DNA of 64,000 nt, from the IMG/VR virus record IMGVR_UViG_3300044633_000115, positions 1,728 to 65,727 of that record; one strand, written 5' to 3'. This document shows positions 30,720 through 50,273 of this stretch, in pieces. The DNA is from a virus. Taxonomy: Duplodnaviria; Caudoviricetes. The notes under the pieces were generated by a model. That model was not told where the DNA came from and did not search any database. It worked only from the letters and a program-made list of their open reading frames with translations. Both the position numbers and the translations under genes were made by a program. The number at the start of each line of letters is the position of its first letter. Position 1 is the first letter of the stretch.

Positions 30720-31697
30720 ATGTGCAGTCCATCACAACCTACGCAACCTACCAACACAACAAACACTACTACGTCTATTCCCGAATACGCTAGACCGTAT
30801 GTAGAGAAGATGTTGGGTCAGACAGAAGCGTTGTCAAAGACCCCATACCAAACGTATGACCGTGAACGTATTGCGGGGTTTTCCCCCCTGCAACAACAGG
30901 CTATGCAAGGTGCGGCAAACATGAACCCTGCCCAACAGTTATCTCAAGGTAGCGGGTTGGCGTATGGCGCGGGATTGGGCGGTGTAGGCATGGCAATGCA
31001 AGCCAACCCACAAAACTTCCAAAACCAAGTTGGTGGGTACATGAACCCGTACTTGCAGATGTCTTTGGCACCACAGTTAGCAGAAGCAAACCGCCAGTAC
31101 GACATCGGTGCTACTAAACAGCAAAGCGCGGCTACTCAGGCTGGTGCGTTTGGTGGGTCACGCGAAGCAATCATGGCGGCTGAGAACGAACGTAACCGCA
31201 ACATGGGGCTAAACAGCATCATTGGTCAAGGCTACAACACAGCCTTTGGCAACGCGCAGAACCAGTACAACCAATCACAGCAACAAGCCCTACAAGGGTT
31301 GGGTATGGCAAATACTGCGGCTGGCACTTTGGGTCAGTTAGGTCAGACTCAGTATGGTCAGCAGATGGGTATCAATCAACTGCAAAACCAGTATGGTGGT
31401 CAACAGCAGGCGCAAGAACAAAACATCTTGGGTCAGCAGTACCAAGACTTCCAAAACCAAGTCAACTATCCGTACAAGCAGTTGGGCTTCATGTCTGACA
31501 TGCTTCGGGGTTTACCCTTATCGCAAGGTGCGTCTACGATGTACCAAGCGCAACCCTCTATGGCGTCACAGGCTGTTGGCCTTGGCTTGCTAGGTAAGGG
31601 TGTGGGTGCGTTTGCCGAGGGTGGCGAAGTTGAACAAGAAGATTACGCTGGCTTGCCAGCAGGTGCGTTACAACGCGTCATGGGAGGAATGGCATGA
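30720..31697 (+). CDS. DNA ejection (pilot) protein
   Basis: Q/G/A/M-rich; IPEYARPY, YMNPY, AGAFGGSR, YPYKQL. Confidence 0.7.
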   Translation: MCSPSQPTQPTNTTNTTTSIPEYARPYVEKMLGQTEALSKTPYQTYDRERIAGFSPLQQQAMQGAANMNPAQQLSQGSGLAYGAGLGGVGMAMQANPQNFQNQVGGYMNPYLQMSLAPQLAEANRQYDIGATKQQSAATQAGAFGGSREAIMAAENERNRNMGLNSIIGQGYNTAFGNAQNQYNQSQQQALQGLGMANTAAGTLGQLGQTQYGQQMGINQLQNQYGGQQQAQEQNILGQQYQDFQNQVNYPYKQLGFMSDMLRGLPLSQGASTMYQAQPSMASQAVGLGLLGKGVGAFAEGGEVEQEDYAGLPAGALQRVMGGMA

Positions 31698-33257: not shown

Positions 33258-36200
33258 ATGGCAACCTTCAACGCTGAAGCAGCATTAAAAGCCGGATACA
33301 CAGAACTCCAAATTGCAGAGTTCTTAGGACAACAAAATAAATTTAATACTGCGGCGGCGTTGCAAGCGGGGTATGCCCCTGCTGACATCATTAAAGAATT
33401 AAGTGGGCCACCACCTACTACCTTTGGTGGGCAAACAAAAGAATTTTTCAAAGGTATCCCATCTGGGGCAGTTAACCTTCTTGAAAGTGCGGCTACTGGT
33501 GCGTCTGCATTGTTGCCAGAGGAGATGGAGAAGTCTGCACGCAAGACTATCTCTGAAACTGCCGCCGCCGCTAAGAAGCCATTTGAAGCCGCTAGAGGTT
33601 ACGAAGAAACAATCCCCCGTAAATTAGGTGAAGCGTTTGGTTCTACTGCACCTTTCTTTGCGCTTGGCCCCGCAGGGTTGGCGGGGCGTATTGGTGCTAC
33701 AGGTTTGGGTGTAGGTGCTGGTGCAGGTGAAGCCCGTACCCGCGCAGAACAAGAAGGTGCAACAGGTGGACAGCGTGCGGGGGCTACTGCTCTTGGTGCT
33801 GTAGTAGGTGTAACAGAAATGTTACCCGTGTTTCGCTTTATAGATAACTTAGCCAGCCCAATTAAAAAAGGCATCATGGGTACGCTTACCCGCGCCGCCG
33901 CTACGGGTGGTGCAGAAGGTTTGCAAGAAGCCGCCGCACAAATAGCGCAAAATTTAATTGCCAAAGGCGTTTACAAACCTGACCAAGCCATCATTGAGCA
34001 AGTAGGTGAATCTGCCGCTTACGGCACAGCAACAGGCGCATTGGTTCAAGTTCTTACAGATATGGCATTGGGTCGCCGTGCTGGACAAGGAAGTTCTACA
34101 CCTGCTGGTAAGCCTACAGACATAGAAGCCGAACAGCAAGCCAAACGCCTTGCAGTAGCGCAAGAGCAGATGGGTGTTAAGCAAGGGCGTGAAGCCCGTG
34201 CTGGTGAGAAGCTACTTAATGCTGAAGAGCGAGAAGCCGCTAAAGCAGAAACCCTTGCACAGAAAGAACGCCTTGCTGAGATGGACCGCCTCAATGCAGA
34301 GGCACGCGCACAACGCGAAGCCGACTTAAAGGCGGCGTTCCCAACCGACTATGCGGATGTGATGCAACGCACAGACAACTACGTTGAACTGAGCAAAGAG
34401 TTAGATGCAATTAGCGGTTCTCAAACCAAAGAAGCCAAAGCACGCCGTGGGCAAATCCAAGCGCGGATGCAACAGATTGTTGAAGAAGATACCCGCGTAC
34501 CTCGCGAGTTAAAGCGCATTCAAGACGACCAAGAACGCTTGGCTAAACAGGCTGGGTTTCCAGCGAAGAAGTCTGCCGCCGCATTTGAAGCCGCGCCCCC
34601 GCAGATGGAGATGCGCGAAGCGATGCTTGAGCCGGGGCAAGAGTTGCCACCACAGCGTGACTTGCAAGGAAACATCATTACACCAGAGGCACCCGTAGCG
34701 GAGCCTACTAAGCGTTTCCCCACATTTAAAAACGAAGTTGACGCACGGCGTGGCATGCAACGTGGTGAGGCGGCACTAGCCAAAGAAGCCACAGCCCTAC
34801 GCAAAGAACAAGAAGCCGCTGGTCAGATGACGCTTGCGCCACGCGTTGAGCCAAAAGTAACAGAGCAGCCAGTTACCCCCGAGCCTACGCTGGTGCAAAA
34901 GCCAGAACCCCTTACACCTACAACTGTACCTACTACCGTCACACCTGATGTGCTGGGTGCTTTGGGTATTGGTCGCACGGCAATTATCCGTAAGCCTGAC
35001 CACGGCATTATGGGTAAAGATATTGCTGACCCTGCACAAGCCGCCGAAGTTAAGTCAATCCTCGAAGCCTATCGCCAAGGCCGTAGCGCACCCATACAAG
35101 AAAAGATAGATGCATACCTTGCACGTCCAGAATTCCAAGCCGTTGCGCCTGCCCAAGAAATTACAAAAGGAGAGACAAATGCTAGACAAACTGAGCCATC
35201 CGCAGTTGGAGACGGCGTTCAAGTACCTGACCAAACCGGTGAAGGAAAGCCCGCCAGACGAACTCTCACAGTTAAACGAAATGGAATGGTTTCTCCTAAG
35301 CCGGATGTTGGACAGCCTATTGTCAGAGAAGCTGAACAGTCCGCTCCAGTAGAAGAAGTACAACCACAGATAGAAGAAGTACAACCACAGGTAGAAGAAG
35401 TACAACCACAGGTAGAAGAAGTACAACCCCCAGCACCCCCTGCCGAGCCTAAGAAGCAGATGGGCATGTTTGACCAGTTGGTACAGCCAGACACTACTAA
35501 AAAAAGTAAAGGCAAGAAAGCCGCGCCTGTCGAAGAGGAAGCCCCTGCCGTAGAAGAAGTTAAGTTTGACCCGTGGGACCCAAAGAACTACAAAGGTCTG
35601 GCGCAAGAGATTGAAAAAGAATCTACACGTAGCAAAGAAGAAGCCGCGCAAGATTTAATTGACGAGAAGAAGGCTGACCGCGAAAGCAAGAAATCCATAA
35701 AGGTCAAGTCTAAGCCTATACAAGAAGCTGTAGAAGAAGAATCAACAGCAGAGAAAGATGTACGTGCAGAGGCTACTACTGCCGCTGTTAAGACCCTGAC
35801 GGGTGCTGACAAGATGGTGCTGGCAAAGCACTACAAGCAACCCAAGTTCAATAAGGTTGCTGAGACATCATTCGTTGACGACACCATCAAGGCTATTAAC
35901 GAAGGTATTGAGTCTGTCTCTAAGGCAATCCACAAGTATGTACGCAAGGCCATGTCTGGCATGCTGTCTGTGGCTTTGGTTATCAACCCAGCGTTTATGG
36001 GTTTGCCAGAAGCGGCGATTATCTCTAGCCCCGCTACCTATACGGTAGAGCAAGCGGTCAAAGCCACCATACCCGCAGAAGCCGCGAAGCTGATGTCGCC
36101 TGCCGCAAAGACTGCGTACGAAACAATACTGCCTGCTATCAAAGCAGACCTACAAGCACGCGATAAGTTATTCATCATCAACGACAAACCCTCGGCACGG

Positions 36201-39200
36201 ACATTCTTGTTCACCCCTGACGGGCAGTTGTTGATGCAGTCCAAGACCCTGCAAGGGGTTGGCGTGGGAGACTTGTACAAGGGTAACAACGACATTGTTG
36301 CAAACCGCGTCACACCTGCTGGTCTGTTTAATATTGAGCAACGCGTTGGTGGTAAGACTGCTGGCGAGTACGACTTTGGTAAGGTGTTTGGTATCAATGA
36401 CACCGAAGCGTTTATCACCATCATGCACTCGGTCTGGACAAAAGAAGCCGATGCACCGCAACGACTGAAAGCGCTTAACAACGACTCGGCGGCAGACTCT
36501 CGCTATTCGTTTGGCTGTATCAATGTGCCGACTGCTACGTTCAAGCAGATGCTTGAGAAGCACGAAAACCAGATGAACGGCGCAAAGATGTTCATCGTGC
36601 CTGATAACCAAGCACGGGTAAAAGACTTTATCAGCGGCGACATTGCCAAGAACACAGTACGCGAAGACAAACTCTTACGCCAATCAGTTGAGCCTGTAAC
36701 TGAGAAAGTTACCAAGACTACATCAGGCGCTGGCAATGTACAGGCTGGAGTTGACCGCACACTGTATGGCAAGCCAGAAGAAAGATTCTCTAGACAAGAG
36801 GTCATGCAAGGTCAAACCGTACAAGAGTTGACTGACGAAATTGCAAAAGGTAAGGGCATCCTTGCGAATGCTTTACGCCGTATGGTGCAGTCTGGCAAAG
36901 TAAGACTTGAAGAAAAGCATCCTAGTGGCGAAAAAATTGGTGGCTATTTTGATGGCAAGACAATCACGCTATACGCTGACGGCATCCCATCAGGTGACGC
37001 AATGGCGGTTGCCCTACACGAAGTAGGCGCTCACTTAGGGCTAAAGAATTTACTGGGTGTACAGCAATACAACAACATCATTAAGCGTATTCAAGCGATG
37101 GCTACTAGCAAAGAAGCTAGTCCAGCCCGTGCCCTTGCACAGCGTGCGTTGTCACGCATCCAGCAAGAAGACATTGTGCGTGGCGATGAAGTTATTGGTG
37201 ATGAGTCAGTTGCGTACTTCATCGAAGAACTTGCCAAAGCGCAAGCAAAAGGCGAACTGCAAACTGTTGGTCCAGCCCGCGCTTTATGGAATCAAATCAA
37301 AGCCGCTATCCAAGCAACTATCAATCGTGTGTTTGGCACTAACCTTGGCGTAGACGCTTTCACACCAGAACAGATTGGCTTACTGGCAAACGCCGCGTTT
37401 ACAAAAGAATCGTTTACTGCTCCCAAGGAAGGTACGGCTGACCTTGCGTCCCGCACCGAAGGATTTACGGACGCATTCCGCAAATGGTTTGGCAACAGCA
37501 AAGTAGTGGATGCTAAAGGCGCACCTCAAGTGGTTTATCACACTGGAAGATTTGATTCCAATGAAATCATTAGCGGCGCTGAAAAACATCGTCGTAGTGG
37601 GGCGACATATCCAATAGGTAATGAAGGAATTTATTTCACTGACAACCCAGAATACTCGGCAATGTATGGTCGCGGTGAAGGCCAGACAATGTACCCCGTT
37701 TATTTAAGTCTTCAAAATCCATTTGTTATTGAAGACCAAGCACAAATGTCGAAGCTTGAAAAACTTAAACAAGTTGTTTTAGGGAAAAAACAATTACCAC
37801 GCAATGAAACAAATACAAATCCACGCACGGATTCAATGTACATAACACCAGAGTACAAAGCAAAACTGATTGCAATGGGGTATGACGGAATAATCAATAA
37901 GCCATACACAGAAATTGTTGCTTTTGAACCGACACAAATAAAATCCGCCATAGGCAACCGAGGCACATACGATATAAACAACCCTGATATACGTTTCTCT
38001 AGGGCACAAGGGTTTACCCCACAAGACTACGATGAAGTAAATCGTATCGCTAATAGCTATGGCCCTGCCGCCGCCCCTGCGGTGGGCGGTTTGCTAAACG
38101 ACAGTTTAAAGGGAATGAATCGCGCCGCAGAAAGTTCTGGGCTATTTACCGCTTTCCGCCACAAGATAGTAGATAAATTGGCATCGGTGGAAGCTAAAGT
38201 ATCTAACAAGTTTTCTATGGGCGTACGGGATTTCTTTGGTAATTTGAACCCCATAGTCTTAGCGCGTCAGGCTGAAGACCACGGCAAAGTGTTTATGAGT
38301 TTTGCTGTTGATGGCGGCATCAAGTTCAACAAAGATGGTTTAGTACAAACTTTCAAACAGGATGCTTCAGTTGCGCAGGCGTTAAAAGATATACAGGCAT
38401 TTGGTCAAGATGCGGGCATGTCGTTTGACCAAGCCAAAGAGTATATATCTAGCATACTGGAAGGTCACCGCGCTTACGACATCCAAGAGAACCACAACAA
38501 GCCGTTAGAAGTATCTGCCGTTTTGCGAGAACAGCAAGGTAAAAACAAAGAGGCTGATGCCGAACGCGCTAAAAAGATTGATTTGCACCTGACTGCGGCT
38601 GACATTGCTTCGCTAGAAGCCAAGTACCAGAAGACCCCTGCAATAAAAGAAATACAAGATACGTTCAATAAGACCCGTATGCATACGATTGATTTGCTGG
38701 CGCAGTCAGGCCGTATCTCCAAAGAGCAGGCTGACGATTGGAAGGCTAACTCTGCGTACGTACCGTTTGACCGTGTATTTGAAGACCTTGGCGTTAACCT
38801 GTTGCCACGCGGTAAGGGTCTTGGTGTGATGACCAAGACGCCAGAGATTAAAGGTTCACTTGACCGCCGCGTTAAGAATGTTGTTGACTCCTATATGGGC
38901 ACACTTGGCTGGATGGTTGAAGAAGCCATGCGCCATAACGCTTCCGTCAAACTGCTAAACGAAATGGAGTTGTCAGGGTTTGCAGAAAAGCATCCGACAA
39001 TCAACGCCGCCAAAAACAAAGACTTGGTAGTTCGCCTGTACAAAGATGGTAAGCCTGTGTTTTATGAAGTGCAGAACGAATACGACATACTAGCGTTTAA
39101 GCAAGCACCCGAAATAAACAACTTTTTAGTAAATGGTTTAACGGCTACGTCCAAGATTCTGCGGGTCAGCGTTACCGCAATGCCACCGTTTGCCATCAAA

Positions 39201-40700
39201 CAGGTTGTAGAAGATGCAACTCGCGCCGCGTTTTACTCTGGTGTAGAACGCCCACTAGTTGTAGCAATGAAGACTCTGTACAACTTACCCCGTGCGTTCT
39301 TTGGTGAAGTGACAGGTCGCAAATCACCAGTCGCCAAAGTACTCGAACAACTGGGTGTTATAGGGGATTACGATTTAAATATCTATAAGCCAACCACTGC
39401 AATCGAGAAAGATATTGGTGCTAAAAAACGCGGCATGGCTGGCGCAATTTTTCATACGTTAGAAGGTTTTACTAAAGCATCTGACCTTGCCGCTCGTATG
39501 GCTGTGTACGAAGAAACTATACGGGATACCAAATCCGAGCAGAACCCAGAGGGCGACACGCTGCTAGCGCAAACCCGCGCACGCGAATTGATTAACTTCC
39601 AACGCCGTGGTTCTAGCGGTTCAATGCGGGTAGCAACTCGTATCATCCCGTTCTTTAACGCCTACGCGCAGGGTATGGATGTGCTGTACCGTAGCGCATC
39701 TGGTATTGACTCATCATCCTCTATAGAACGTGGGGCTGCACGACGTTTATTCATGGGTCGCGTTGCCATGATGACTGCAATGGGTTTTGCTTACGCAATC
39801 GCAATGAGTGACGATGACGGTTACAAAGAAGCTACGGACGAGAAGCGTGATAACAATTGGTTACTACCTAACAATTACAAAATACCATGTCCAAAAGAAT
39901 TGGGATTCCTATTTAAAGTTATTCCAGAACGTATTGTTGAGTACATGAATCGTAAGGGTACACCCGAAGAACAAAGCGTAATGGATGCGCTGTCTGGGGT
40001 TATGAAAGCGGGTTACTCTGCTTACTCGACACCAACTACGATACCGTCATACGTTCGCCCAGTTATTGAAAACATGGCTAACTACTCGTTCTTCTTGCAA
40101 CGCGAGTTGGAATCTACTGATTTGCAAAAGAAACTGCCGGGCTATCGTTATACATCTACCACCTCAGAAGTAGCAAAGTCTTTGGGCGAAGCGACTAACG
40201 TCTCGCCAATCAAAATAGACAACTTGCTCAAAGGTATGTTCGGTATGGCAGGGTCAACTACGCTGTTGATAACAGACGCTATGCTCAACCCGACGCGCCC
40301 TGACCGCCCAATTTCTCAGCTACCCTTTGCTAGTATCTTTACGTACGACACAGTTGGTGGGCGGGCTAAGACTGAGTTCTATGACTTGCGTGAACGTGTA
40401 TCGCAGGCGGATTCCACGTTTAAAGACCTTCTGAAATACAACCCAGAAAAGGCGCAAAAGTTTCTAGAAGAGAACCAATCGCTTATTGCTATGGCACCGC
40501 TAATTAACAAGAGTTTAAAAGACCTTAGTGAAACACGTAGCGTGCGTATGGTACTTGAGCAAGGCACCGATGCCCAACTTGGTATAGATAGTGCAGAGCG
40601 CCGTAGACTTATTGACGAACTGCGGGGTTATGAAAACGACTCTCTCAGTTATGTGCGCGGGATTGAGAAACAAATGCGCGAGATGGATTTACTGCAATAA
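33258..40700 (+). CDS. Giant polyvalent ejection protein (L,D-transpeptidase-like, zincin metallopeptidase, ART-like, LPD38-like domains)
   Basis: 2480 aa; INDKP...TPAG.F...MHSVW...SFGCINV; ALHEVGAHLGL...ESVAY; FRKWFGNSKVVD...VYH...GIYFT...PVYL...GYDG...EIVAF...QIKS; IPFFNA..QG...IP.P.E.G...P.KID.L. Confidence 0.8.
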   Translation: MATFNAEAALKAGYTELQIAEFLGQQNKFNTAAALQAGYAPADIIKELSGPPPTTFGGQTKEFFKGIPSGAVNLLESAATGASALLPEEMEKSARKTISETAAAAKKPFEAARGYEETIPRKLGEAFGSTAPFFALGPAGLAGRIGATGLGVGAGAGEARTRAEQEGATGGQRAGATALGAVVGVTEMLPVFRFIDNLASPIKKGIMGTLTRAAATGGAEGLQEAAAQIAQNLIAKGVYKPDQAIIEQVGESAAYGTATGALVQVLTDMALGRRAGQGSSTPAGKPTDIEAEQQAKRLAVAQEQMGVKQGREARAGEKLLNAEEREAAKAETLAQKERLAEMDRLNAEARAQREADLKAAFPTDYADVMQRTDNYVELSKELDAISGSQTKEAKARRGQIQARMQQIVEEDTRVPRELKRIQDDQERLAKQAGFPAKKSAAAFEAAPPQMEMREAMLEPGQELPPQRDLQGNIITPEAPVAEPTKRFPTFKNEVDARRGMQRGEAALAKEATALRKEQEAAGQMTLAPRVEPKVTEQPVTPEPTLVQKPEPLTPTTVPTTVTPDVLGALGIGRTAIIRKPDHGIMGKDIADPAQAAEVKSILEAYRQGRSAPIQEKIDAYLARPEFQAVAPAQEITKGETNARQTEPSAVGDGVQVPDQTGEGKPARRTLTVKRNGMVSPKPDVGQPIVREAEQSAPVEEVQPQIEEVQPQVEEVQPQVEEVQPPAPPAEPKKQMGMFDQLVQPDTTKKSKGKKAAPVEEEAPAVEEVKFDPWDPKNYKGLAQEIEKESTRSKEEAAQDLIDEKKADRESKKSIKVKSKPIQEAVEEESTAEKDVRAEATTAAVKTLTGADKMVLAKHYKQPKFNKVAETSFVDDTIKAINEGIESVSKAIHKYVRKAMSGMLSVALVINPAFMGLPEAAIISSPATYTVEQAVKATIPAEAAKLMSPAAKTAYETILPAIKADLQARDKLFIINDKPSARTFLFTPDGQLLMQSKTLQGVGVGDLYKGNNDIVANRVTPAGLFNIEQRVGGKTAGEYDFGKVFGINDTEAFITIMHSVWTKEADAPQRLKALNNDSAADSRYSFGCINVPTATFKQMLEKHENQMNGAKMFIVPDNQARVKDFISGDIAKNTVREDKLLRQSVEPVTEKVTKTTSGAGNVQAGVDRTLYGKPEERFSRQEVMQGQTVQELTDEIAKGKGILANALRRMVQSGKVRLEEKHPSGEKIGGYFDGKTITLYADGIPSGDAMAVALHEVGAHLGLKNLLGVQQYNNIIKRIQAMATSKEASPARALAQRALSRIQQEDIVRGDEVIGDESVAYFIEELAKAQAKGELQTVGPARALWNQIKAAIQATINRVFGTNLGVDAFTPEQIGLLANAAFTKESFTAPKEGTADLASRTEGFTDAFRKWFGNSKVVDAKGAPQVVYHTGRFDSNEIISGAEKHRRSGATYPIGNEGIYFTDNPEYSAMYGRGEGQTMYPVYLSLQNPFVIEDQAQMSKLEKLKQVVLGKKQLPRNETNTNPRTDSMYITPEYKAKLIAMGYDGIINKPYTEIVAFEPTQIKSAIGNRGTYDINNPDIRFSRAQGFTPQDYDEVNRIANSYGPAAAPAVGGLLNDSLKGMNRAAESSGLFTAFRHKIVDKLASVEAKVSNKFSMGVRDFFGNLNPIVLARQAEDHGKVFMSFAVDGGIKFNKDGLVQTFKQDASVAQALKDIQAFGQDAGMSFDQAKEYISSILEGHRAYDIQENHNKPLEVSAVLREQQGKNKEADAERAKKIDLHLTAADIASLEAKYQKTPAIKEIQDTFNKTRMHTIDLLAQSGRISKEQADDWKANSAYVPFDRVFEDLGVNLLPRGKGLGVMTKTPEIKGSLDRRVKNVVDSYMGTLGWMVEEAMRHNASVKLLNEMELSGFAEKHPTINAAKNKDLVVRLYKDGKPVFYEVQNEYDILAFKQAPEINNFLVNGLTATSKILRVSVTAMPPFAIKQVVEDATRAAFYSGVERPLVVAMKTLYNLPRAFFGEVTGRKSPVAKVLEQLGVIGDYDLNIYKPTTAIEKDIGAKKRGMAGAIFHTLEGFTKASDLAARMAVYEETIRDTKSEQNPEGDTLLAQTRARELINFQRRGSSGSMRVATRIIPFFNAYAQGMDVLYRSASGIDSSSSIERGAARRLFMGRVAMMTAMGFAYAIAMSDDDGYKEATDEKRDNNWLLPNNYKIPCPKELGFLFKVIPERIVEYMNRKGTPEEQSVMDALSGVMKAGYSAYSTPTTIPSYVRPVIENMANYSFFLQRELESTDLQKKLPGYRYTSTTSEVAKSLGEATNVSPIKIDNLLKGMFGMAGSTTLLITDAMLNPTRPDRPISQLPFASIFTYDTVGGRAKTEFYDLRERVSQADSTFKDLLKYNPEKAQKFLEENQSLIAMAPLINKSLKDLSETRSVRMVLEQGTDAQLGIDSAERRRLIDELRGYENDSLSYVRGIEKQMREMDLLQ
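35179..35352 (+). CDS. Putative nested +1-frame gene (57 aa) inside the polyvalent protein gene
   Basis: AAGGAG at 35167-35172, 6 nt before ATG; MLDKLSHPQLETAFKYLTKPVKESPPDELSQLNEMEWFLLSRMLDSLLSEKLNSPLQ with two amphipathic helices. Confidence 0.55.
   Translation: MLDKLSHPQLETAFKYLTKPVKESPPDELSQLNEMEWFLLSRMLDSLLSEKLNSPLQ
35349..35432 (+). repeat. 21-bp tandem repeat x4 (EEVQPQV)
   Basis: (g/a)tagaagaagtacaaccacag four times, last copy degenerate. Confidence 0.95.
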
Positions 40701-40777: not shown

Positions 40778-40996
40778 TCACGCAACTCTCCATGCGCGTA
40801 CACCCCACATACCGTTTTCGATGCGTGCCCTGCACTGCACTCTCATATCAAATGACCTTGCTACCACGATGATGTGAGTAACTACAGCGCGGTTGTCTAG
40901 GCAAGGCACAAAGAAGGACGAGCCCGTTATGAACTTGCCCCACTCTATGTTTACTTGTACGCCCTCAACCTCAAGCGACTTTGAGGTTGTCGTCAT
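40778..40996 (-). CDS. Small hypothetical protein
   Basis: I.W..F..GSSFFVPC...GVRAWR; start uncertain. Confidence 0.65.
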   Translation of the reverse strand: MTTTSKSLEVEGVQVNIEWGKFITGSSFFVPCLDNRAVVTHIIVVARSFDMRVQCRARIENGMWGVRAWRVA

Positions 40997-43817
40997 CGGT
41001 GGTCTTAGCGATGATGGAATCTACGTCAAACACACTGCTAAGTGAGTCGTCTATCAGGATAGCGTTTACAGGTGGTGCTGCAACCATCAGACCCTTTGCC
41101 ATACGTTTCTTCACGACCTCTACGCGTACGCCATCGTTCTTCAGCGCGTTTAATGTTTCGTGGTAACTAACTTGGTTCTTTGAACACCAGTCTTTAAACG
41201 CACGTTGTACGAAGTACAGACACTTTGTATCCATATCGTATCGAATCATCAACGCATTCATCGGGGTCATCAACGGCGCTTTGGGTAGCCCGTTGTCTGC
41301 GGTCTTGTCGTGACCGACCAAGATGCTACGGATGTTGGAGTTGATAAACGAACCGATTGCAGAGATGCCGTCTGTTGGGATAGCCTTGATGTCGGTACTG
41401 CCCTTACGCAAGAACGCTATGAGCCACTTGAAGATGCGCTTAACGTCAATATCAATCAAGCCCAAACGCTGTGCGATAAACCCGCCTGTGATGGCAACAG
41501 CACCAAGGCTAGACCAGAAGCGTTCGCGTTGACCCAAGCCAGCCGCCGCATCCAGTTTAAGTTGGACATCATGCAAAACTTCCAACGCTTCAGCGCGATT
41601 CTCTACAAGATACTTCATGTAGATTTCACCAGCCAAACCAAAGTTTTTGTGCAACTTGGCAAACAAAGCGTCAGTAAATTCCTTAGAGAAGTTGGCATCG
41701 CGCTCAATCTTCAACTCGATGATACGCATCAACTCACCTTCTGGAAATTCCTTTAGGCTATACAGCTTGTCGTACAGGCTGGCGTTAGATGATGTGATTG
41801 CTATCAGTCGCCACATTGTGTTGTTGATACGCTCTGCGTTGACTTGTGACTCCATGCGATTCTTGCCACGCCCTTGGGTTGTAGCGTAAGCCAACTGCGA
41901 AACGATGTCTTCGCGCATGTTTGTGATTTCGTCAATCGTCACAGGCAAGTTGTTCATCACCCCAAAGCGGAAAATCTTTGAGTTGTATGTATCGTCATTT
42001 TGTAGAAGTAAGTCAAACGGCTCACCCCAGATACTGTTGATTGCCATCTGCACAGTTGACTTGCCTGTACCAGAACTGCCACTCAGTAAGTTAACGATAC
42101 CGCCCCGCACTTGGGTGAACTTCAGCAATGGTGTACCAAAGCCCAATAGAAAAGCAAACGCTTGTGCTTCCATGCCGGGGTTGTCGTAGAAATTAACGAC
42201 TGACTTCCACTCTGCCAAGTCACCCTTCTTACCCAGCAAACCACAAGTCTGCAAGATGGCAGTTGATGGCGGGCTGTACTTGACCCCAGTAGGCGTGATT
42301 TCTCTGTCGCCTAGGATGAACGTATTTTCTTCTGTCCAACCAAATTGTGTTCTAACTTTTTCTGCTTGTTCCATATTTTGTAACTCCTTTACCCAACGTG
42401 ATACATAAAACATGAGTTCGTTTACGCCTTTATCAAGGGCTACTACACCATGTTCACCAATCGCATCGCGAAATCGGTCTTTGGCGAGTGCCGCTGTAAG
42501 CGGTATCGAAAACTCCCTCACTCCATCTTTTGGCAGATGCAACCGCATCCACAACACTTCCCCTAAAGCTGGGTCAAACATTCGCTTGACCACATAAAAA
42601 TCGTTCTCATAGACTAACTTGTCTTGCCCGTCTTCTTGGCCTGCATCTGCTTTGCGGTAGATGCCACCATACTTGCCACGAAAAAAGGGAAAGGGATACG
42701 CGGGTATGTCGTACACCCGCTTTTCTTTTGTCTCTGCGTTAACTTGTTCTACTTTATTATCTGCTTCTGTAGCCGCTTCAATTTCTTTTCCCAACACGAT
42801 GGGCGAACCAAACTTACCCTTGTGCTTGCATGACCCGCAAGTGTTGGGGTGCAGGGTATCAAACATACCGCATGTGTATGGACCCTTGGTTAGACTCGCC
42901 TTGTATTCTGTCTGCCCCCTATCGTATGCGGGGTGCATGTTGGAGATGTCGTGGATGGCAGAGTCGCGGTCAATGCAATGCTGTGCAACCGATAAGCCCG
43001 CACGCCACAAGGGTTCTTCTATGTTGGTTTGGTCTTCTAGTATGCGGTTGAGTTGCGGGCAACCCTCTGCTTTGAGGGCGATGATTTTCTGAAAGCGAAA
43101 GGTATTGTTCTTACCAATCAGGCTTTTGCTAGTCTCGTCTAGCCCCTCGGCCTTTAAGTGTTCTGGTACCTCAAAGGGTAGCGCGTCAGCAGACTGGGTG
43201 GTTGTTGCACCCAGCGCCTTTGCGAACTCTATCAAATCAACCTTGCCATCACCAGCGATGTACTCGACAGGCAACGGGTTGGTTGGGTCTTTAAAGTGTG
43301 TGGTGTCAGGCACGCGCAGAATACGGGCGGAATCTGTGGTGCATGCTGAGTCGACGTGCAGTTGCTTTTCTAGGCAAACTTCTTTTAGGCGTTTCGCTAC
43401 GGGAATCCAAATGTCTTTCGGTATCGCTTCGTCTAGCACCCAGTACGTATGTAGTCCGGTGCCAGAGTTAATGCAGATAGGTTGTGGGAGATTGAGGTCA
43501 GCACAGAACTGACCGAGTGCCGCTATCGCATCGACCCGCGTGGCGTAGGGTTTGGTGGGTCCGCAATCTATGTCAAGCCAGAACGACTTGATGAATGATA
43601 CGTTTGCCGCCAACCTACGTGGTGGGTTGATTGCTGGGTCGAATGACGACATCGCGAAGTACGCGTCTGCGCCAGCACTATGGATAGTTTCAATCTCTGC
43701 AACGAGTGTGGGAATGTCATTTGCAAACCGTGTGCGAATCTTGCCGTGCATTATTCCAACTGCGCAGTATGTGCCTGTATTGGCAAGCACTGCGGTTAGA
43801 AATTCTGTTTTTGTCAT
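40971..43817 (-). CDS. Primase-helicase (AEP-like primase plus DUF927/P-loop helicase)
   Basis: FWLDIDCG, INSGTGLHTYW, RILRVP.T, Cys cluster C..C.H, Walker A GSSGTGKST, TIDE. Confidence 0.85.
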   Translation of the reverse strand: MTKTEFLTAVLANTGTYCAVGIMHGKIRTRFANDIPTLVAEIETIHSAGADAYFAMSSFDPAINPPRRLAANVSFIKSFWLDIDCGPTKPYATRVDAIAALGQFCADLNLPQPICINSGTGLHTYWVLDEAIPKDIWIPVAKRLKEVCLEKQLHVDSACTTDSARILRVPDTTHFKDPTNPLPVEYIAGDGKVDLIEFAKALGATTTQSADALPFEVPEHLKAEGLDETSKSLIGKNNTFRFQKIIALKAEGCPQLNRILEDQTNIEEPLWRAGLSVAQHCIDRDSAIHDISNMHPAYDRGQTEYKASLTKGPYTCGMFDTLHPNTCGSCKHKGKFGSPIVLGKEIEAATEADNKVEQVNAETKEKRVYDIPAYPFPFFRGKYGGIYRKADAGQEDGQDKLVYENDFYVVKRMFDPALGEVLWMRLHLPKDGVREFSIPLTAALAKDRFRDAIGEHGVVALDKGVNELMFYVSRWVKELQNMEQAEKVRTQFGWTEENTFILGDREITPTGVKYSPPSTAILQTCGLLGKKGDLAEWKSVVNFYDNPGMEAQAFAFLLGFGTPLLKFTQVRGGIVNLLSGSSGTGKSTVQMAINSIWGEPFDLLLQNDDTYNSKIFRFGVMNNLPVTIDEITNMREDIVSQLAYATTQGRGKNRMESQVNAERINNTMWRLIAITSSNASLYDKLYSLKEFPEGELMRIIELKIERDANFSKEFTDALFAKLHKNFGLAGEIYMKYLVENRAEALEVLHDVQLKLDAAAGLGQRERFWSSLGAVAITGGFIAQRLGLIDIDVKRIFKWLIAFLRKGSTDIKAIPTDGISAIGSFINSNIRSILVGHDKTADNGLPKAPLMTPMNALMIRYDMDTKCLYFVQRAFKDWCSKNQVSYHETLNALKNDGVRVEVVKKRMAKGLMVAAPPVNAILIDDSLSSVFDVDSIIAKTTDDDNLKVA

Positions 43818-47701: not shown

Positions 47702-48379
47702 TTATTTCCTTCCACAGTGAGCGCACTCGCTCACCCAGCAGTAATTCTTGCATAAACCATTGGGTTTTGCATTCCAAACGCCCGAACTATAGGCGCCTTC
47801 TAGCATGGTGATGGTGGGCATCCAGTTGCCCCAGTAGCGGTGCTGTTGTTGGGCTTCGTAAACAGATGGCACAAACTTGCCCTCAGTCAGAAACAACAAC
47901 CCACCCTTGACCTTGGTCACCTTGGGAAACATCTTGAACACAGCCAACGCCATGAGTTCCAACTGACCAACGTCAGCGTAACGGCTCTTGCCAAGTTTGT
48001 AGTCCACGACTCGCGCTTCGCCCCTCTCCTCGTCCACGATAAGCAAGTCGGCTACGCCACGAAACCAGCAGTCGGGTGAGAAGAAGTCGCACGGCTCTAA
48101 CGCTTCGGTCAAAGCCATTTTGATTTCGCAATACTTGGTGCCAGAGATACGCTTCAAAGACTCAAGCGGTTCTTGCATAAAGTCAAACTTTGGGGGTATG
48201 GGTACATCGTCACGGATATACAACTCAGCGGCTGTATGTGCTTCCTTGCCATACATGGCGGCTTCGCCCTCTGGCTCTTTCACATCCTTGATTACCTTGG
48301 TGTGGTAATACTTCTTTGGACAGGTTGTAAAAGTTTTCAGACTAGAAAACGACCATGCTGGAATCTTATTAGCAATCAC
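47702..48379 (-). CDS. Cas4/RecB-like PD-(D/E)xK exonuclease
   Basis: WSFSSL..F..CP..Y, G...H, GVADL, VVDYK.GK, QL..A, C..YC....C (Fe-S); probable GTG start at 48379. Confidence 0.85.
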   Translation of the reverse strand: MIANKIPAWSFSSLKTFTTCPKKYYHTKVIKDVKEPEGEAAMYGKEAHTAAELYIRDDVPIPPKFDFMQEPLESLKRISGTKYCEIKMALTEALEPCDFFSPDCWFRGVADLLIVDEERGEARVVDYKLGKSRYADVGQLELMALAVFKMFPKVTKVKGGLLFLTEGKFVPSVYEAQQQHRYWGNWMPTITMLEGAYSSGVWNAKPNGLCKNYCWVSECAHCGRK

Positions 48380-50273
48380 CGTATGACATCCCCATCCCGC
48401 TCTCGCAGTTGACTGGTAACCCTTCGGCCCATGATGGTGTCCAACGCATGCAGGATTCCACATAGGCTCGTGCCTCATCTGCTTCTTCTTGCCGAGCGAC
48501 AATACCGATAGCATCGTGTACTGTAAGTACAACCTTGTACCGCTTGGCAATTCGTAACATTTGTTCGCCAATGATACACCGAGCGATTGCCTGTGTGAAG
48601 TTCTCTACGACCTTTCCACCATAAATTTTATTGGTGCCCTTGCGGGTGGTGTACTGGAATTGGCGTTTACCCTCACCATCCACAACCTCGACTAGCCCGC
48701 TATAGAACACATACAACCCGTTGGGTAAGCGGATGCGCCCACCACTCGGACCAGCGTCTACAGTCAGCAAGCCGTTGCGACCCAAGTTCATCGTCTGCCC
48801 ACGCGCCATGCATCTCAGGGCTTCTTGGGATTCGCGCCAAAGTTGCGGTATCTTGGGGTACGTCTGGCGGTAAGTATCAATAATACGTTTCGCCTCATCG
48901 CCGTCAATCTCCGTGCCAAGTGTTTTGAGTTGTAGTTGAAACTTCGGGCCACCCATGCCGTACCCCGCGCCGAGAATCGTTGTCTTACCAACGAACCGCT
49001 CGTCTTTGCTAATCTTATCAACCGACTGGTTGTAGATAACAGATGCCATGATTTTGTATACGTCCTCGCCATTTGCAAACGCCTCCACTAAATCGTCTTG
49101 CTCGGATTCCCACGCCAAGGTGCGGGCTTCAATTTGTGATGAGTCAGCATCGATAAACACGTAACCCTCTGGGGCAAGAATGGCTTGCTTGAGTTTGGGT
49201 GGTGGTTCGTCTTGCTTTTGACGGGGTAAGTTCTGTAGGTTCACAGAATCCGTACCACCCCATCGCCCTGTGTGGGCGGCGTAGTACTTCAACGGTACTG
49301 GGAATAACCCTCGCTTGCCGATGTCGATGAATCGTTGGGTGCGAGTCTCTTCAATCGTTGACTTAGTACCCAGCCTAGCCGCAACCAACGCTTGCACCCG
49401 TTTGTCTTCATGCTCTAGCAAATCTTGTAGGGCAGCATCTGTCTTGGCAAATGCAAATGTCTCTTTGCCTGTGGTCATGCTTATCTTGACGGGGGGTGAC
49501 ACGCCTATGGACTCAAGCATCTTGGCAAACTTGGGGTTGCTCATTAACGTCTTGCGTACTTCTGCCTTTACCTCTTCGTCACCCAGTATGTGTTTGACGG
49601 CTAAGTCTTTGTGGCCTACGGCTTGCAGGGCGTTGACCAAGTGGTTGGTCTTTTGCCCGACAGTCTCAGCAAGGTGTTGCTCTAACAGCACGCTATCAAG
49701 GCGCAGTACTGGGTCGATGAACATGCGTAGCGTCAGGTCAATCAGCTTTAGTTCTGACTTGGGAAACTTGCCCATCATTTTGTTAAAGATGTCGTAGGTT
49801 AACTGCACATCGTTCTTGCAGTACTCGCCGTACTGGTCGAGTTCACGCGGGGTGAACTGCACCAAGCGTTTGCCCTTGGCATCGTCCACCTCGGTGCCCT
49901 TATGCCCCACGCCATATTGAACGGCAATGTTCTTGAGAGATACGCTTTGTTCTACGCCATGCAAGGCACGCGCCATCGACTGCGTGTCGAGCCAGCCCAT
50001 AGGTTTGATGCCGTACCGCCATGACAAGATAGCCCCATCGAACATGGTGTTGTGTGCCAGTACAAGTGAGTCTGCCCAAGGCAGTCGGTCAAGGGCTGTG
50101 GTTACCCGCAGTTCACCACCTGACACCCACACAGGTGGGGCGTCATCTACCTTGTAAGAAAAACCAATCGTCTGAAACAAGCCAGCCCGCACATACTCTT
50201 CGGTACTTATCTTGCTAAGGCTGTAGTCTTGGTCGTAGTAAGTTTCAAAATCTATTGTGATTAGGTGAGTCAT
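48369..50273 (-). CDS. polA: DNA polymerase, family A (3'-5' exo plus polymerase)
   Basis: IDFETY, AHN..FD, YC..DV, TGR, NLQN, D.SQIEAR, R..GK...LG..YG, VHD. Confidence 0.93.
   Translation of the reverse strand: MTHLITIDFETYYDQDYSLSKISTEEYVRAGLFQTIGFSYKVDDAPPVWVSGGELRVTTALDRLPWADSLVLAHNTMFDGAILSWRYGIKPMGWLDTQSMARALHGVEQSVSLKNIAVQYGVGHKGTEVDDAKGKRLVQFTPRELDQYGEYCKNDVQLTYDIFNKMMGKFPKSELKLIDLTLRMFIDPVLRLDSVLLEQHLAETVGQKTNHLVNALQAVGHKDLAVKHILGDEEVKAEVRKTLMSNPKFAKMLESIGVSPPVKISMTTGKETFAFAKTDAALQDLLEHEDKRVQALVAARLGTKSTIEETRTQRFIDIGKRGLFPVPLKYYAAHTGRWGGTDSVNLQNLPRQKQDEPPPKLKQAILAPEGYVFIDADSSQIEARTLAWESEQDDLVEAFANGEDVYKIMASVIYNQSVDKISKDERFVGKTTILGAGYGMGGPKFQLQLKTLGTEIDGDEAKRIIDTYRQTYPKIPQLWRESQEALRCMARGQTMNLGRNGLLTVDAGPSGGRIRLPNGLYVFYSGLVEVVDGEGKRQFQYTTRKGTNKIYGGKVVENFTQAIARCIIGEQMLRIAKRYKVVLTVHDAIGIVARQEEADEARAYVESCMRWTPSWAEGLPVNCESGMGMSYGDC

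Follow-up and report, generated by a model that had tools for sequence, protein, structure and literature searches.

This analysis concerns a short open reading frame (ORF) at positions 35179-35352, on the plus strand, of a 64,000-nucleotide (nt) stretch of the virus record IMGVR_UViG_3300044633_000115 (IMG/VR; Caudoviricetes), a stretch that we call the window and always mean at its full length. The small ORF is enclosed in a much larger one, a single ORF of 2480 amino acids (aa) at 33258-40700 on the same strand, which encodes a polyvalent virion or ejection-type protein. From comparison with relatives, the small ORF is best explained as a genuine protein-coding gene with an initiation of its own, which overprints a tolerant linker of the giant gene in the +1 frame. 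We put the probability of this at about 0.85, a figure for the gene being real and independently initiated, with its function lying outside it.

The nested gene consists of 57 codons and a stop (ATG at 35179-35181, TAG at 35350-35352), and its frame is +1 relative to that of the 2480-aa ORF, as (35179-33258) mod 3 = 1. It is preceded by the Shine-Dalgarno (SD) sequence AAGGAG at 35167-35172 (plus strand), from which the start codon is separated by the 6-nt spacer AGACAA. A first-pass annotation of the window had described the motif, the spacer, the start at 35179 and the 57-aa ORF, and all of them are where it placed them. It had also taken the main frame to be a linker here and the small ORF to end at the first unit of a repeat, and this agrees with what we find. 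Host-frame codons 641-699 (35178-35354, plus strand), which overlap the nested gene, form a linker of drifting amino acids that never acquires a stop, and the nested stop belongs to the opening unit of a tandem repeat of 21 nt (35349-35428, plus strand; 3.8 copies) that reads VEEVQPQ in the host frame.

A longer, 80-aa version of the ORF, starting from an ATG at 35110, is also present in the window. In two relatives (L004 and L005) the +1 frame is shut four codons before the shorter start, so that the 80-aa version is not kept there, and as 19 of 79 loci have a +1-frame stop within 0-6 codons ahead of the start, the conserved unit is not the 80-aa form. An SD-like motif followed by an ATG ORF of at least 50 aa, out of frame inside an ORF of at least 200 aa, occurs twice in the window when both strands are counted, and the nested gene is one of the two cases. 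The other is an ORF of 85 aa at 48815-49072 on the minus strand, within a DNA polymerase gene (48369..50273). Alternative-frame ORFs of 50-80 aa without an SD are frequent within the giant gene. The rarity of the full combination in 64 kb is suggestive of a gene and is no proof alone, and it is because of the comparative data that the nested ORF is raised above chance. No sigma-70-like promoter was found in 34600-35700.

Selection in the two reading frames

When the window is compared with locus L001, all 12 differences within the nested gene are synonymous in the nested frame and all 12 are non-synonymous in the host frame. In the comparison with L003, 10 of the 12 differences are synonymous in the nested frame, and the remaining two make up a single change from leucine to isoleucine. 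The variation has a period of three that follows the third positions of the +1 frame, and there are also changes at the first position of leucine codons (CTN/TTR). With the method of Nei and Gojobori (NG86), applied to the 35 pairs at p<=0.20 that could be formed from 41 gapless sequences, the ratio of non-synonymous to synonymous substitution (dN/dS) is 0.10 in the nested frame, 0.96 in the third frame and an apparent 4.37 in the host frame. A frame-specific dN/dS had been named in the first-pass annotation as a check on its proposal of an overprinted gene, and the outcome speaks for that proposal. Nested and host frames are both open in 41 of the 41 sequences, and the antisense frames are interrupted by stops in 13, 20 and 40 of them. 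The lowest of these counts belongs to the frame of a 198-aa antisense ORF (35055..35651), which has its third codon positions in common with the nested gene.

Related sequences inflate such counts, and for that reason 20 non-overlapping nearest pairs were taken. Of the 505 changes in these independent pairs, 257 are synonymous for the nested frame and 68 for the host frame; summed over the 13 closest pairs, the corresponding counts are 129 and 13 of 168, where chance would give fractions of 0.21 and 0.26. A distantly related clade, P0099, was treated separately; of its 100 changes, 66 are synonymous for the nested frame and 7 for the host frame.

Segments of 58 codons were slid along the 2480-codon gene, and the host-frame ratio of non-synonymous to synonymous differences (pN/pS) exceeds 1 only over residues 627-704, which correspond to two segments. 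The values there are 1.87 and 1.23 against L005 and 2.02 and 1.73 against L006, compared with gene medians of 0.15 and 0.24. The host frame has left a trace in the nested gene as well: at nested third positions before AA, AG or GA codons, where a T would create a host-frame stop, T is found in 0 of 958 cases, and elsewhere in 78 of 2307. These patterns show purifying selection on the amino acids of the +1 frame and a host frame that is relaxed but open, being constrained over the nested gene only to stay open.

Population variants were taken from contigs of four lake or freshwater metagenome runs, and the counts are of the variants listed, beside which 115 more exist. At 34862-35126, upstream of the nested gene, 12 of 13 are on host codon position 3, and inside the nested ORF three of four are on nested position 3 and none of the four on host position 3. 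Host third positions hold 6 of the 10 variants at 35423-35510 and 7 of the 13 in a poorly conserved part at 34732-34772.

Conservation among viral relatives

With the giant protein as query, three loci were found in IMG/VR, two of which span the site of the nested gene and have kept SD, ATG and TAG with no indel. A search of IMG/VR with the peptide itself matched 127 stretches, 97 of them encoding relatives, from which 80 loci were retained. In every one of the 79 loci that could be evaluated (one more locus is 5'-truncated) a giant ORF contains the small one in its +1 frame; a broken ORF in close homologues, which according to the first-pass annotation would speak against its proposal, is thus seen in none of the 79. 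Complete host ORFs across the loci measure 1775-2637 aa; the third forward frame runs into a stop within 5-161 codons. Among the 58 unique nucleotide versions 37 begin with ATG and 21 with GTG, and GGAG, GAGG or AGGA is present at -16 to -4 in 57 of the 58, with a spacing of 6-7 nt in 52. Whether SD, start and ORF are kept while the main frame drifts had been named as a check in the first-pass annotation, and across this set they are. L057 has a different start, an ATG 14 codons upstream with AGGAGG before it.

The nested product is 56-59 aa long in these relatives and up to 60 aa in more distant groups, and the end of the ORF is fixed across related loci. The region forms an island of nucleotide conservation flanked by variable linkers. 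Conservation spans the whole peptide from residue 2 on, the N-terminal helix included; L5, E11 and A13 are invariant in 51 sequences, and conservation is strongest at residues 36-44 and 47-50, that is 7-21 residues from the C-terminus. Divergence of the relatives by indels begins exactly at the 21-nt repeat, from the nested stop on, and the repeat is an indel hot spot bounded by the end of the nested gene. At the aligned repeat site of L001 and L003 the copies are fewer, or about 200 nt of unrelated sequence are inserted. Among the metagenome contigs there are skips of 72-177 nt that begin at 35354-35357, and several contigs diverge right after the nested stop.

The nested peptide is better conserved than the giant protein around it. 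The nested start is found at host codon 264-737 in the carriers, and the 90 host-frame residues preceding it are unrelated in many of them. The peptides of five other carriers (L010, L022, L044, L015 and L048) share 58-67% identity with that of the window, while towards their N- and C-termini the giants of the same five carriers can be aligned with the window protein only at E values of 1.6e-4 to 1.1, and at E>=0.009 save for the C-terminal part in L022. Exceptions in how well the giants can be aligned are L019 (C-terminal part, 64%) and L086 (27%). The best conserved part of the host frame among 60 carriers is made up of the N-terminal residues 60-280. Routine annotation skips the nested gene or occasionally calls it as a 'hypothetical protein', much as had been foreseen when it was said that gene callers would miss it.

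The family reaches beyond these loci. A profile of 51 peptides, run against 1.84 billion representative proteins, matched 148 protein clusters at E<=0.001 and 46 at E<=1e-10. Most of the matching proteins are 47-160 aa long with the match at the C-terminus, and a few long repetitive ones look spurious; the family members that were examined are nearly all unnamed, and a few are called 'hypothetical protein'. Genomic context was obtained for four distant groups, P0099, P0154, P0145 and P0132. In the first three of them the gene is again nested in the +1 frame of a giant ORF, which is 1747-1893 aa long in the P0099 group (10 loci), 1888 aa in the P0154 group (1 locus) and 2210 and 2271 aa in the P0145 group (2 loci). 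SD and ATG are found throughout these 13 loci, the guanine and cytosine (GC) content of which is 39-55%. By BLASTP the peptides of L086 (P0099 group) and L129 (P0145 group) are 38.9% and 41.5% identical to that of the window, and L095 of the P0154 group has no BLASTP match to it. Scans of viral contigs with P0132, P0093 and P0081 found no relatives.

The 57-aa product

The product has a mass of 6.66 kDa and an isoelectric point of 4.87, with no cysteine and no N-terminal hydrophobic stretch. AlphaFold2, given 107 aligned relatives, returns a compact model with a predicted local distance difference test score (pLDDT) of 79.5 and a predicted template modelling score (pTM) of 0.54; an earlier model from 51 sequences had a pLDDT of 70.5. 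Helices are modelled at residues 7-18 and 34-53, with a short helical turn at 27-29, and a proline-rich loop joins the two long helices, so the two helices with a proline turn of the first-pass annotation are also what the model predicts. The long helix contains one arginine and one lysine; it is hydrophobic and acidic, not basic.

Pfam, PHROGs and NCBIfam hold no family for the peptide or its distant relatives, the weak rows being DUF6794 at E 0.0036 and two others below cut-off. The ESM Atlas gave no usable hit for the peptide, Foldseek against PDB and BFVD nothing at E<=0.001, and the sequence profile a best E of 0.042 against PDB. Judged from these searches, the peptide belongs to a new protein family. 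With VIA-align, Myb, homeodomain and MarR-type chains reach Z scores of 4.0-4.8 at a root mean square deviation of 2.3-3.3 over 46-54 residues; the first model reached a Z of at most 3.8 and the second one of at most 4.8, where the tool is trusted from about 8 upwards. This likeness to a three-helix helix-turn-helix fold is weak, and because of the character of the long helix we treat it as a lead. A homodimer prediction for the peptide scored 0.02.

A stand-alone relative in bacteria

The fourth group, P0132, is not nested. The neighbouring frames extend for only 7-118 codons, and the context is chromosomal, with genes for glutamate kinase, Obg, polyprenyl synthetase, rhodanese and a major facilitator superfamily (MFS) protein; the records are metagenome-assembled genomes of freshwater Burkholderiaceae or Burkholderiales. 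A profile built from phage peptides only has exactly one match per genome in three of these genomes, at E 1e-9 to 1e-10, and hhalign of the phage family against P0132 gives a probability of 97.6% and an E value of 4e-12 over 53 columns. On these alignments the homology between the phage peptide and the stand-alone gene is sound. The stand-alone homologues are 81-86% identical among themselves and have the same first residue as the nested peptide. We take them as independent evidence that the family encodes a protein, and they are the only functional lead.

The stand-alone gene is rare, being found in 6 of 172 genomes of the family. In even samples of the order and the phylum (401 genomes each) only the centre genome matched, apart from one marginal hit with an internal stop in the phylum sample, and a first scan of genome contigs with the phage motif found no relative. 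Of 20 loci in total, 17 extend far enough upstream to be informative, and each of these 17 has an ORF of 105 aa on the same strand, 108-438 nt ahead of the gene. This ORF is FlgM-like, with scores just below the cut-offs (37.7 against 40.75 for TIGR03824, and 23 against 25 for Pfam), and in two of these genomes the FlgM near flhA, presumably the genuine one, has no higher score. The pair of the FlgM-like gene and the peptide gene was observed 3' of the polyprenyl synthetase gene, at 7541-8177 of L101, at matching places in L096-L115 and at G001:C65:80446-81122. It is present in genomes with FlhA (G001 and G003) and in genomes where FlhA was not found (G002, G108 and G109). PF05130 (FlgN; 147 positions) had no match in the five bacterial genomes with a stand-alone homologue.

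A counterpart of this pair was looked for in the phage. A host-frame motif upstream of the nested gene (GKDIADP...KIDAYLAR) was considered as a FlgM-like element that would mirror the bacterial arrangement, and hhalign gave it a probability of 0.1% and Pfam no hit. The motif is moreover missing from the 90 upstream residues in many carriers, and the idea was dropped. There is no FlgM-like match in the phage genome.

Interpretation and alternatives

If the nested gene is what it appears to be, ribosomes would start independently at the internal SD and ATG on a late mRNA that also encodes the giant protein, and co-expression of the two is plausible from their position. The product would be an acidic protein of 57 aa with two long helices and a short one. 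We hypothesize that it acts with the conserved scaffold of the giant protein, as a chaperone of assembly or packaging or as a co-packaged partner, and with no particular payload domain. A role as partner or chaperone of the scaffold in packaging or delivery is a tentative proposal to which we give clearly less than an even chance. We favour it because the peptide accompanies the carrier class, is made within the carrier gene, and is small, acidic and helical.

A wider and still more doubtful picture can be drawn. The peptide could be the one constant element of hypervariable giant injected proteins and an obligate adaptor that is required for loading them into the capsid or enters the host cell along with them. 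It might also act there on a regulatory pair of the host, a thought that comes from its only cellular relatives sitting directly behind a FlgM-like anti-sigma gene, and a narrow lineage of freshwater Burkholderiaceae may then have captured or donated the gene, perhaps as a decoy against phages of this kind. The nesting could have arisen by fusion of flanking frames across an older small gene. As the peptide has stand-alone cellular homologues and is the better conserved of the two proteins, the small gene may indeed be old, and not a young gene that arose de novo.

Several points weigh against an overprinted gene as we read it. None of the 20 runs listed for this DNA is an RNA run, and the case rests on sequence comparison. 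The sequences compared are related, so that raw counts are not independent, and the independent pairs are a partial remedy; in the most distant pairs the signal also weakens, which saturation of synonymous sites would lead one to expect (19 of 57 changes synonymous between L005 and L019). No cultured carrier was found: a DNA query of 34600-35900 against cultured phages gave only a low-complexity match of 6%, tblastn searches of 50,697 phage records with the 80-aa form, P0099 and P0154 produced no match or, at best, an E of 0.7, and a profile search of three cultured phages with LPD38 giants (Pag-Yong1, phiARM81mr and PTXU04) was negative in all three. In addition, the 266-aa protein P0055 runs from host-frame sequence, with an ART-like stretch in it, straight into the C-terminal half of the peptide without a break in frame; this join could come from frame-switching, from an indel or assembly error, or from a natural variant with fused frames. 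As for function, neither a family nor a convincing fold relative nor a predicted partner came to light for the peptide.

P0055 bears most directly on the idea of a programmed +1 frameshift, by which the giant gene would yield an N-terminal fragment of about 640 aa with an alternative C-terminus of 57 aa, AAGGAG being the stimulator. P0055 shows just such a join from host to nested frame, the +1 frame of the window is open for 23 codons upstream of the ATG at 35179, and internal SD-like sequences can stimulate frameshifting, as in the cases of prfB and dnaX. A frame used in this way should be reachable from the host frame and need no start of its own. Here a stop shuts it off 0-6 codons upstream in the 19 of 79 loci counted above, yet conservation of the peptide sets in at residue 2. 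All 58 unique sequences open with ATG or GTG, as expected of a start codon rather than of an internal methionine or valine, and the stand-alone homologues begin at the same residue. We regard a frameshift as very improbable. A non-coding element, in which an RNA or DNA signal is conserved and the open frame is incidental, would fit an island of nucleotide conservation between variable linkers. It would not give a three-base periodicity locked to the third position of the +1 frame, nor a dN/dS of 0.10 in that frame only, and the amino acids are recognisable at 39-42% identity across loci of 39-55% GC, with a profile that finds 148 clusters. As far as sequence comparison reaches, this reading and that of a chance ORF are refuted.

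The two other alternatives accept that the ORF is translated. Its translation, or stalling on it, might tune in cis how many ribosomes complete the giant gene, with a peptide that has no function of its own. The ORF lies in the middle of a frame of 7.4 kb, it ends exactly at the variable repeat, and its strongest conservation is near the C-terminus, all of which would suit a regulatory ORF. Conservation over the full length, with L5, E11 and A13 invariant, is not what such a role needs; nor is a stand-alone bacterial gene that overlaps no partner and keeps 81-86% identity, or a compact model with a pLDDT of 79.5, and we find this explanation unlikely, though it is the least unlikely of those set against ours. 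The first-pass annotation had suggested, as a possibility, an inhibitor or chaperone of the ART, peptidase or transpeptidase domains of the giant protein, which would protect against them during assembly. The peptide is encoded inside the gene of this putative target, and the window protein does have an ART-PolyVal domain. However, none of the giant ORFs of nine other carriers has ART-PolyVal at E<=0.001, and the domains that can be detected in them vary (LPD38 in five, LPD39 in three, one of which also has HATPase_c, and none in one). The peptide moreover stays 58-67% identical between carriers with payload regions that can barely be aligned, and the bacterial homologue adjoins a FlgM-like gene and not an ART. 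A payload-specific inhibitor therefore has little to recommend it, and we rate it about as low as the frameshift. What the counts favour is the overprinted gene, independently initiated and selected for its own product.

Relation to known systems

The organisation has a well-known parallel in lambda, where the small gene Rz1 lies complete within Rz, on the same strand and in the +1 frame, with a ribosome-binding site and a start codon to itself, and both products come from one late transcript. Rz1 encodes a lipoprotein of the outer membrane that has a signal peptide and a lipobox cysteine, the gene is part of a lysis cassette, and the Rz and Rz1 products bind each other. The present peptide differs in having neither a cysteine nor a hydrophobic signal, its host gene encodes a giant polyvalent virion protein, and it overlaps an unconstrained linker and not a functional part of the host protein. 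An embedded o-spanin of the Rz1 type was thus considered and rejected, since there is no lipobox cysteine, no N-terminal hydrophobic stretch and no i-spanin in a lysis cassette as host. The genes B, K and E of phiX174 are similar in that two frames are read from one DNA and the apparent dN/dS of one is inflated. Here the genome is 65.7 kb, so compaction is no obvious reason for the overlap, and the nested gene is the better conserved partner and has stand-alone cellular homologues. A third likeness, by functional analogy only, is to small acidic helical chaperones of export or assembly such as FlgN and those of type III secretion. The peptide is likewise small, acidic and helical, and its gene lies next to or within that of a large protein which has to pass a narrow channel. 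In many flagellar clusters flgN follows flgM, and the bacterial homologue follows a FlgM-like gene, which is the place of flgN. The peptide has no match to FlgN or to any family, and it is less than half as long as the FlgN model (147 positions).

We therefore see in the nested gene a new instance of a known gene organisation, notable in that conservation of the nested gene goes further than that of its host gene and that a stand-alone relative exists in cells. General reviews of overprinted genes are PMC8227390 and PMC3494269. The host gene, with ART-PolyVal and LPD38, resembles the polyvalent proteins of Iyer et al. 2017 (PMC5512222). In the main text of that paper the words 'overlapping' and 'frameshift' occur 0 times and 'nested' and 'embedded' are used in other senses, so that a gene nested in polyvalent proteins is not described in that text. 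In the literature searched, supplementary files being outside its scope, the core motif is in no paper, and nothing on this gene was found under polyvalent or overprinted virion proteins.

The case would be one of clean and deeply conserved dual coding in a large double-stranded DNA phage, and genome compaction does not explain it. It suggests that gene counts, and the label 'linker' in giant phage proteins, can hide real genes. The peptide may be a general factor for proteins of the polyvalent or ejection type, the packaging and delivery of which are poorly understood, and experiments could begin from the stand-alone homologue that lies next to a FlgM-like gene in freshwater Burkholderiaceae. 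It also raises an evolutionary question, namely whether an older small gene was swallowed by a growing reading frame.

The host gene and its surroundings

Pfam at E<=0.01 finds only two domains in the giant protein, ART-PolyVal at residues 1418-1570 (74.4 bits, cut-off 31.2) and LPD38 at residues 2186-2358 (106.8 bits, cut-off 27); the peptidase and transpeptidase domains that the first-pass annotation had also read into it were not confirmed by this search. The gene is giant and multidomain, with an LPD and an effector domain above the Pfam cut-offs, and so belongs with the polyvalent proteins. Upstream of it are a PHROG structural protein and a 'DNA ejection protein' gene at 30720-31697, and farther off a portal gene.

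A primase/helicase-like protein is encoded at 40971-43817 on the minus strand. Its best match in a cultured phage is to Pseudomonas phage Rollin, with 30% identity over 86% of the length, and at that level of identity the phage is one without a close cultured relative. The source record is 65,727 bp long and rated 100% complete, and the window is nearly all of it. The DNA was found in lake and freshwater metagenome runs, and the habitat is likely lake water.

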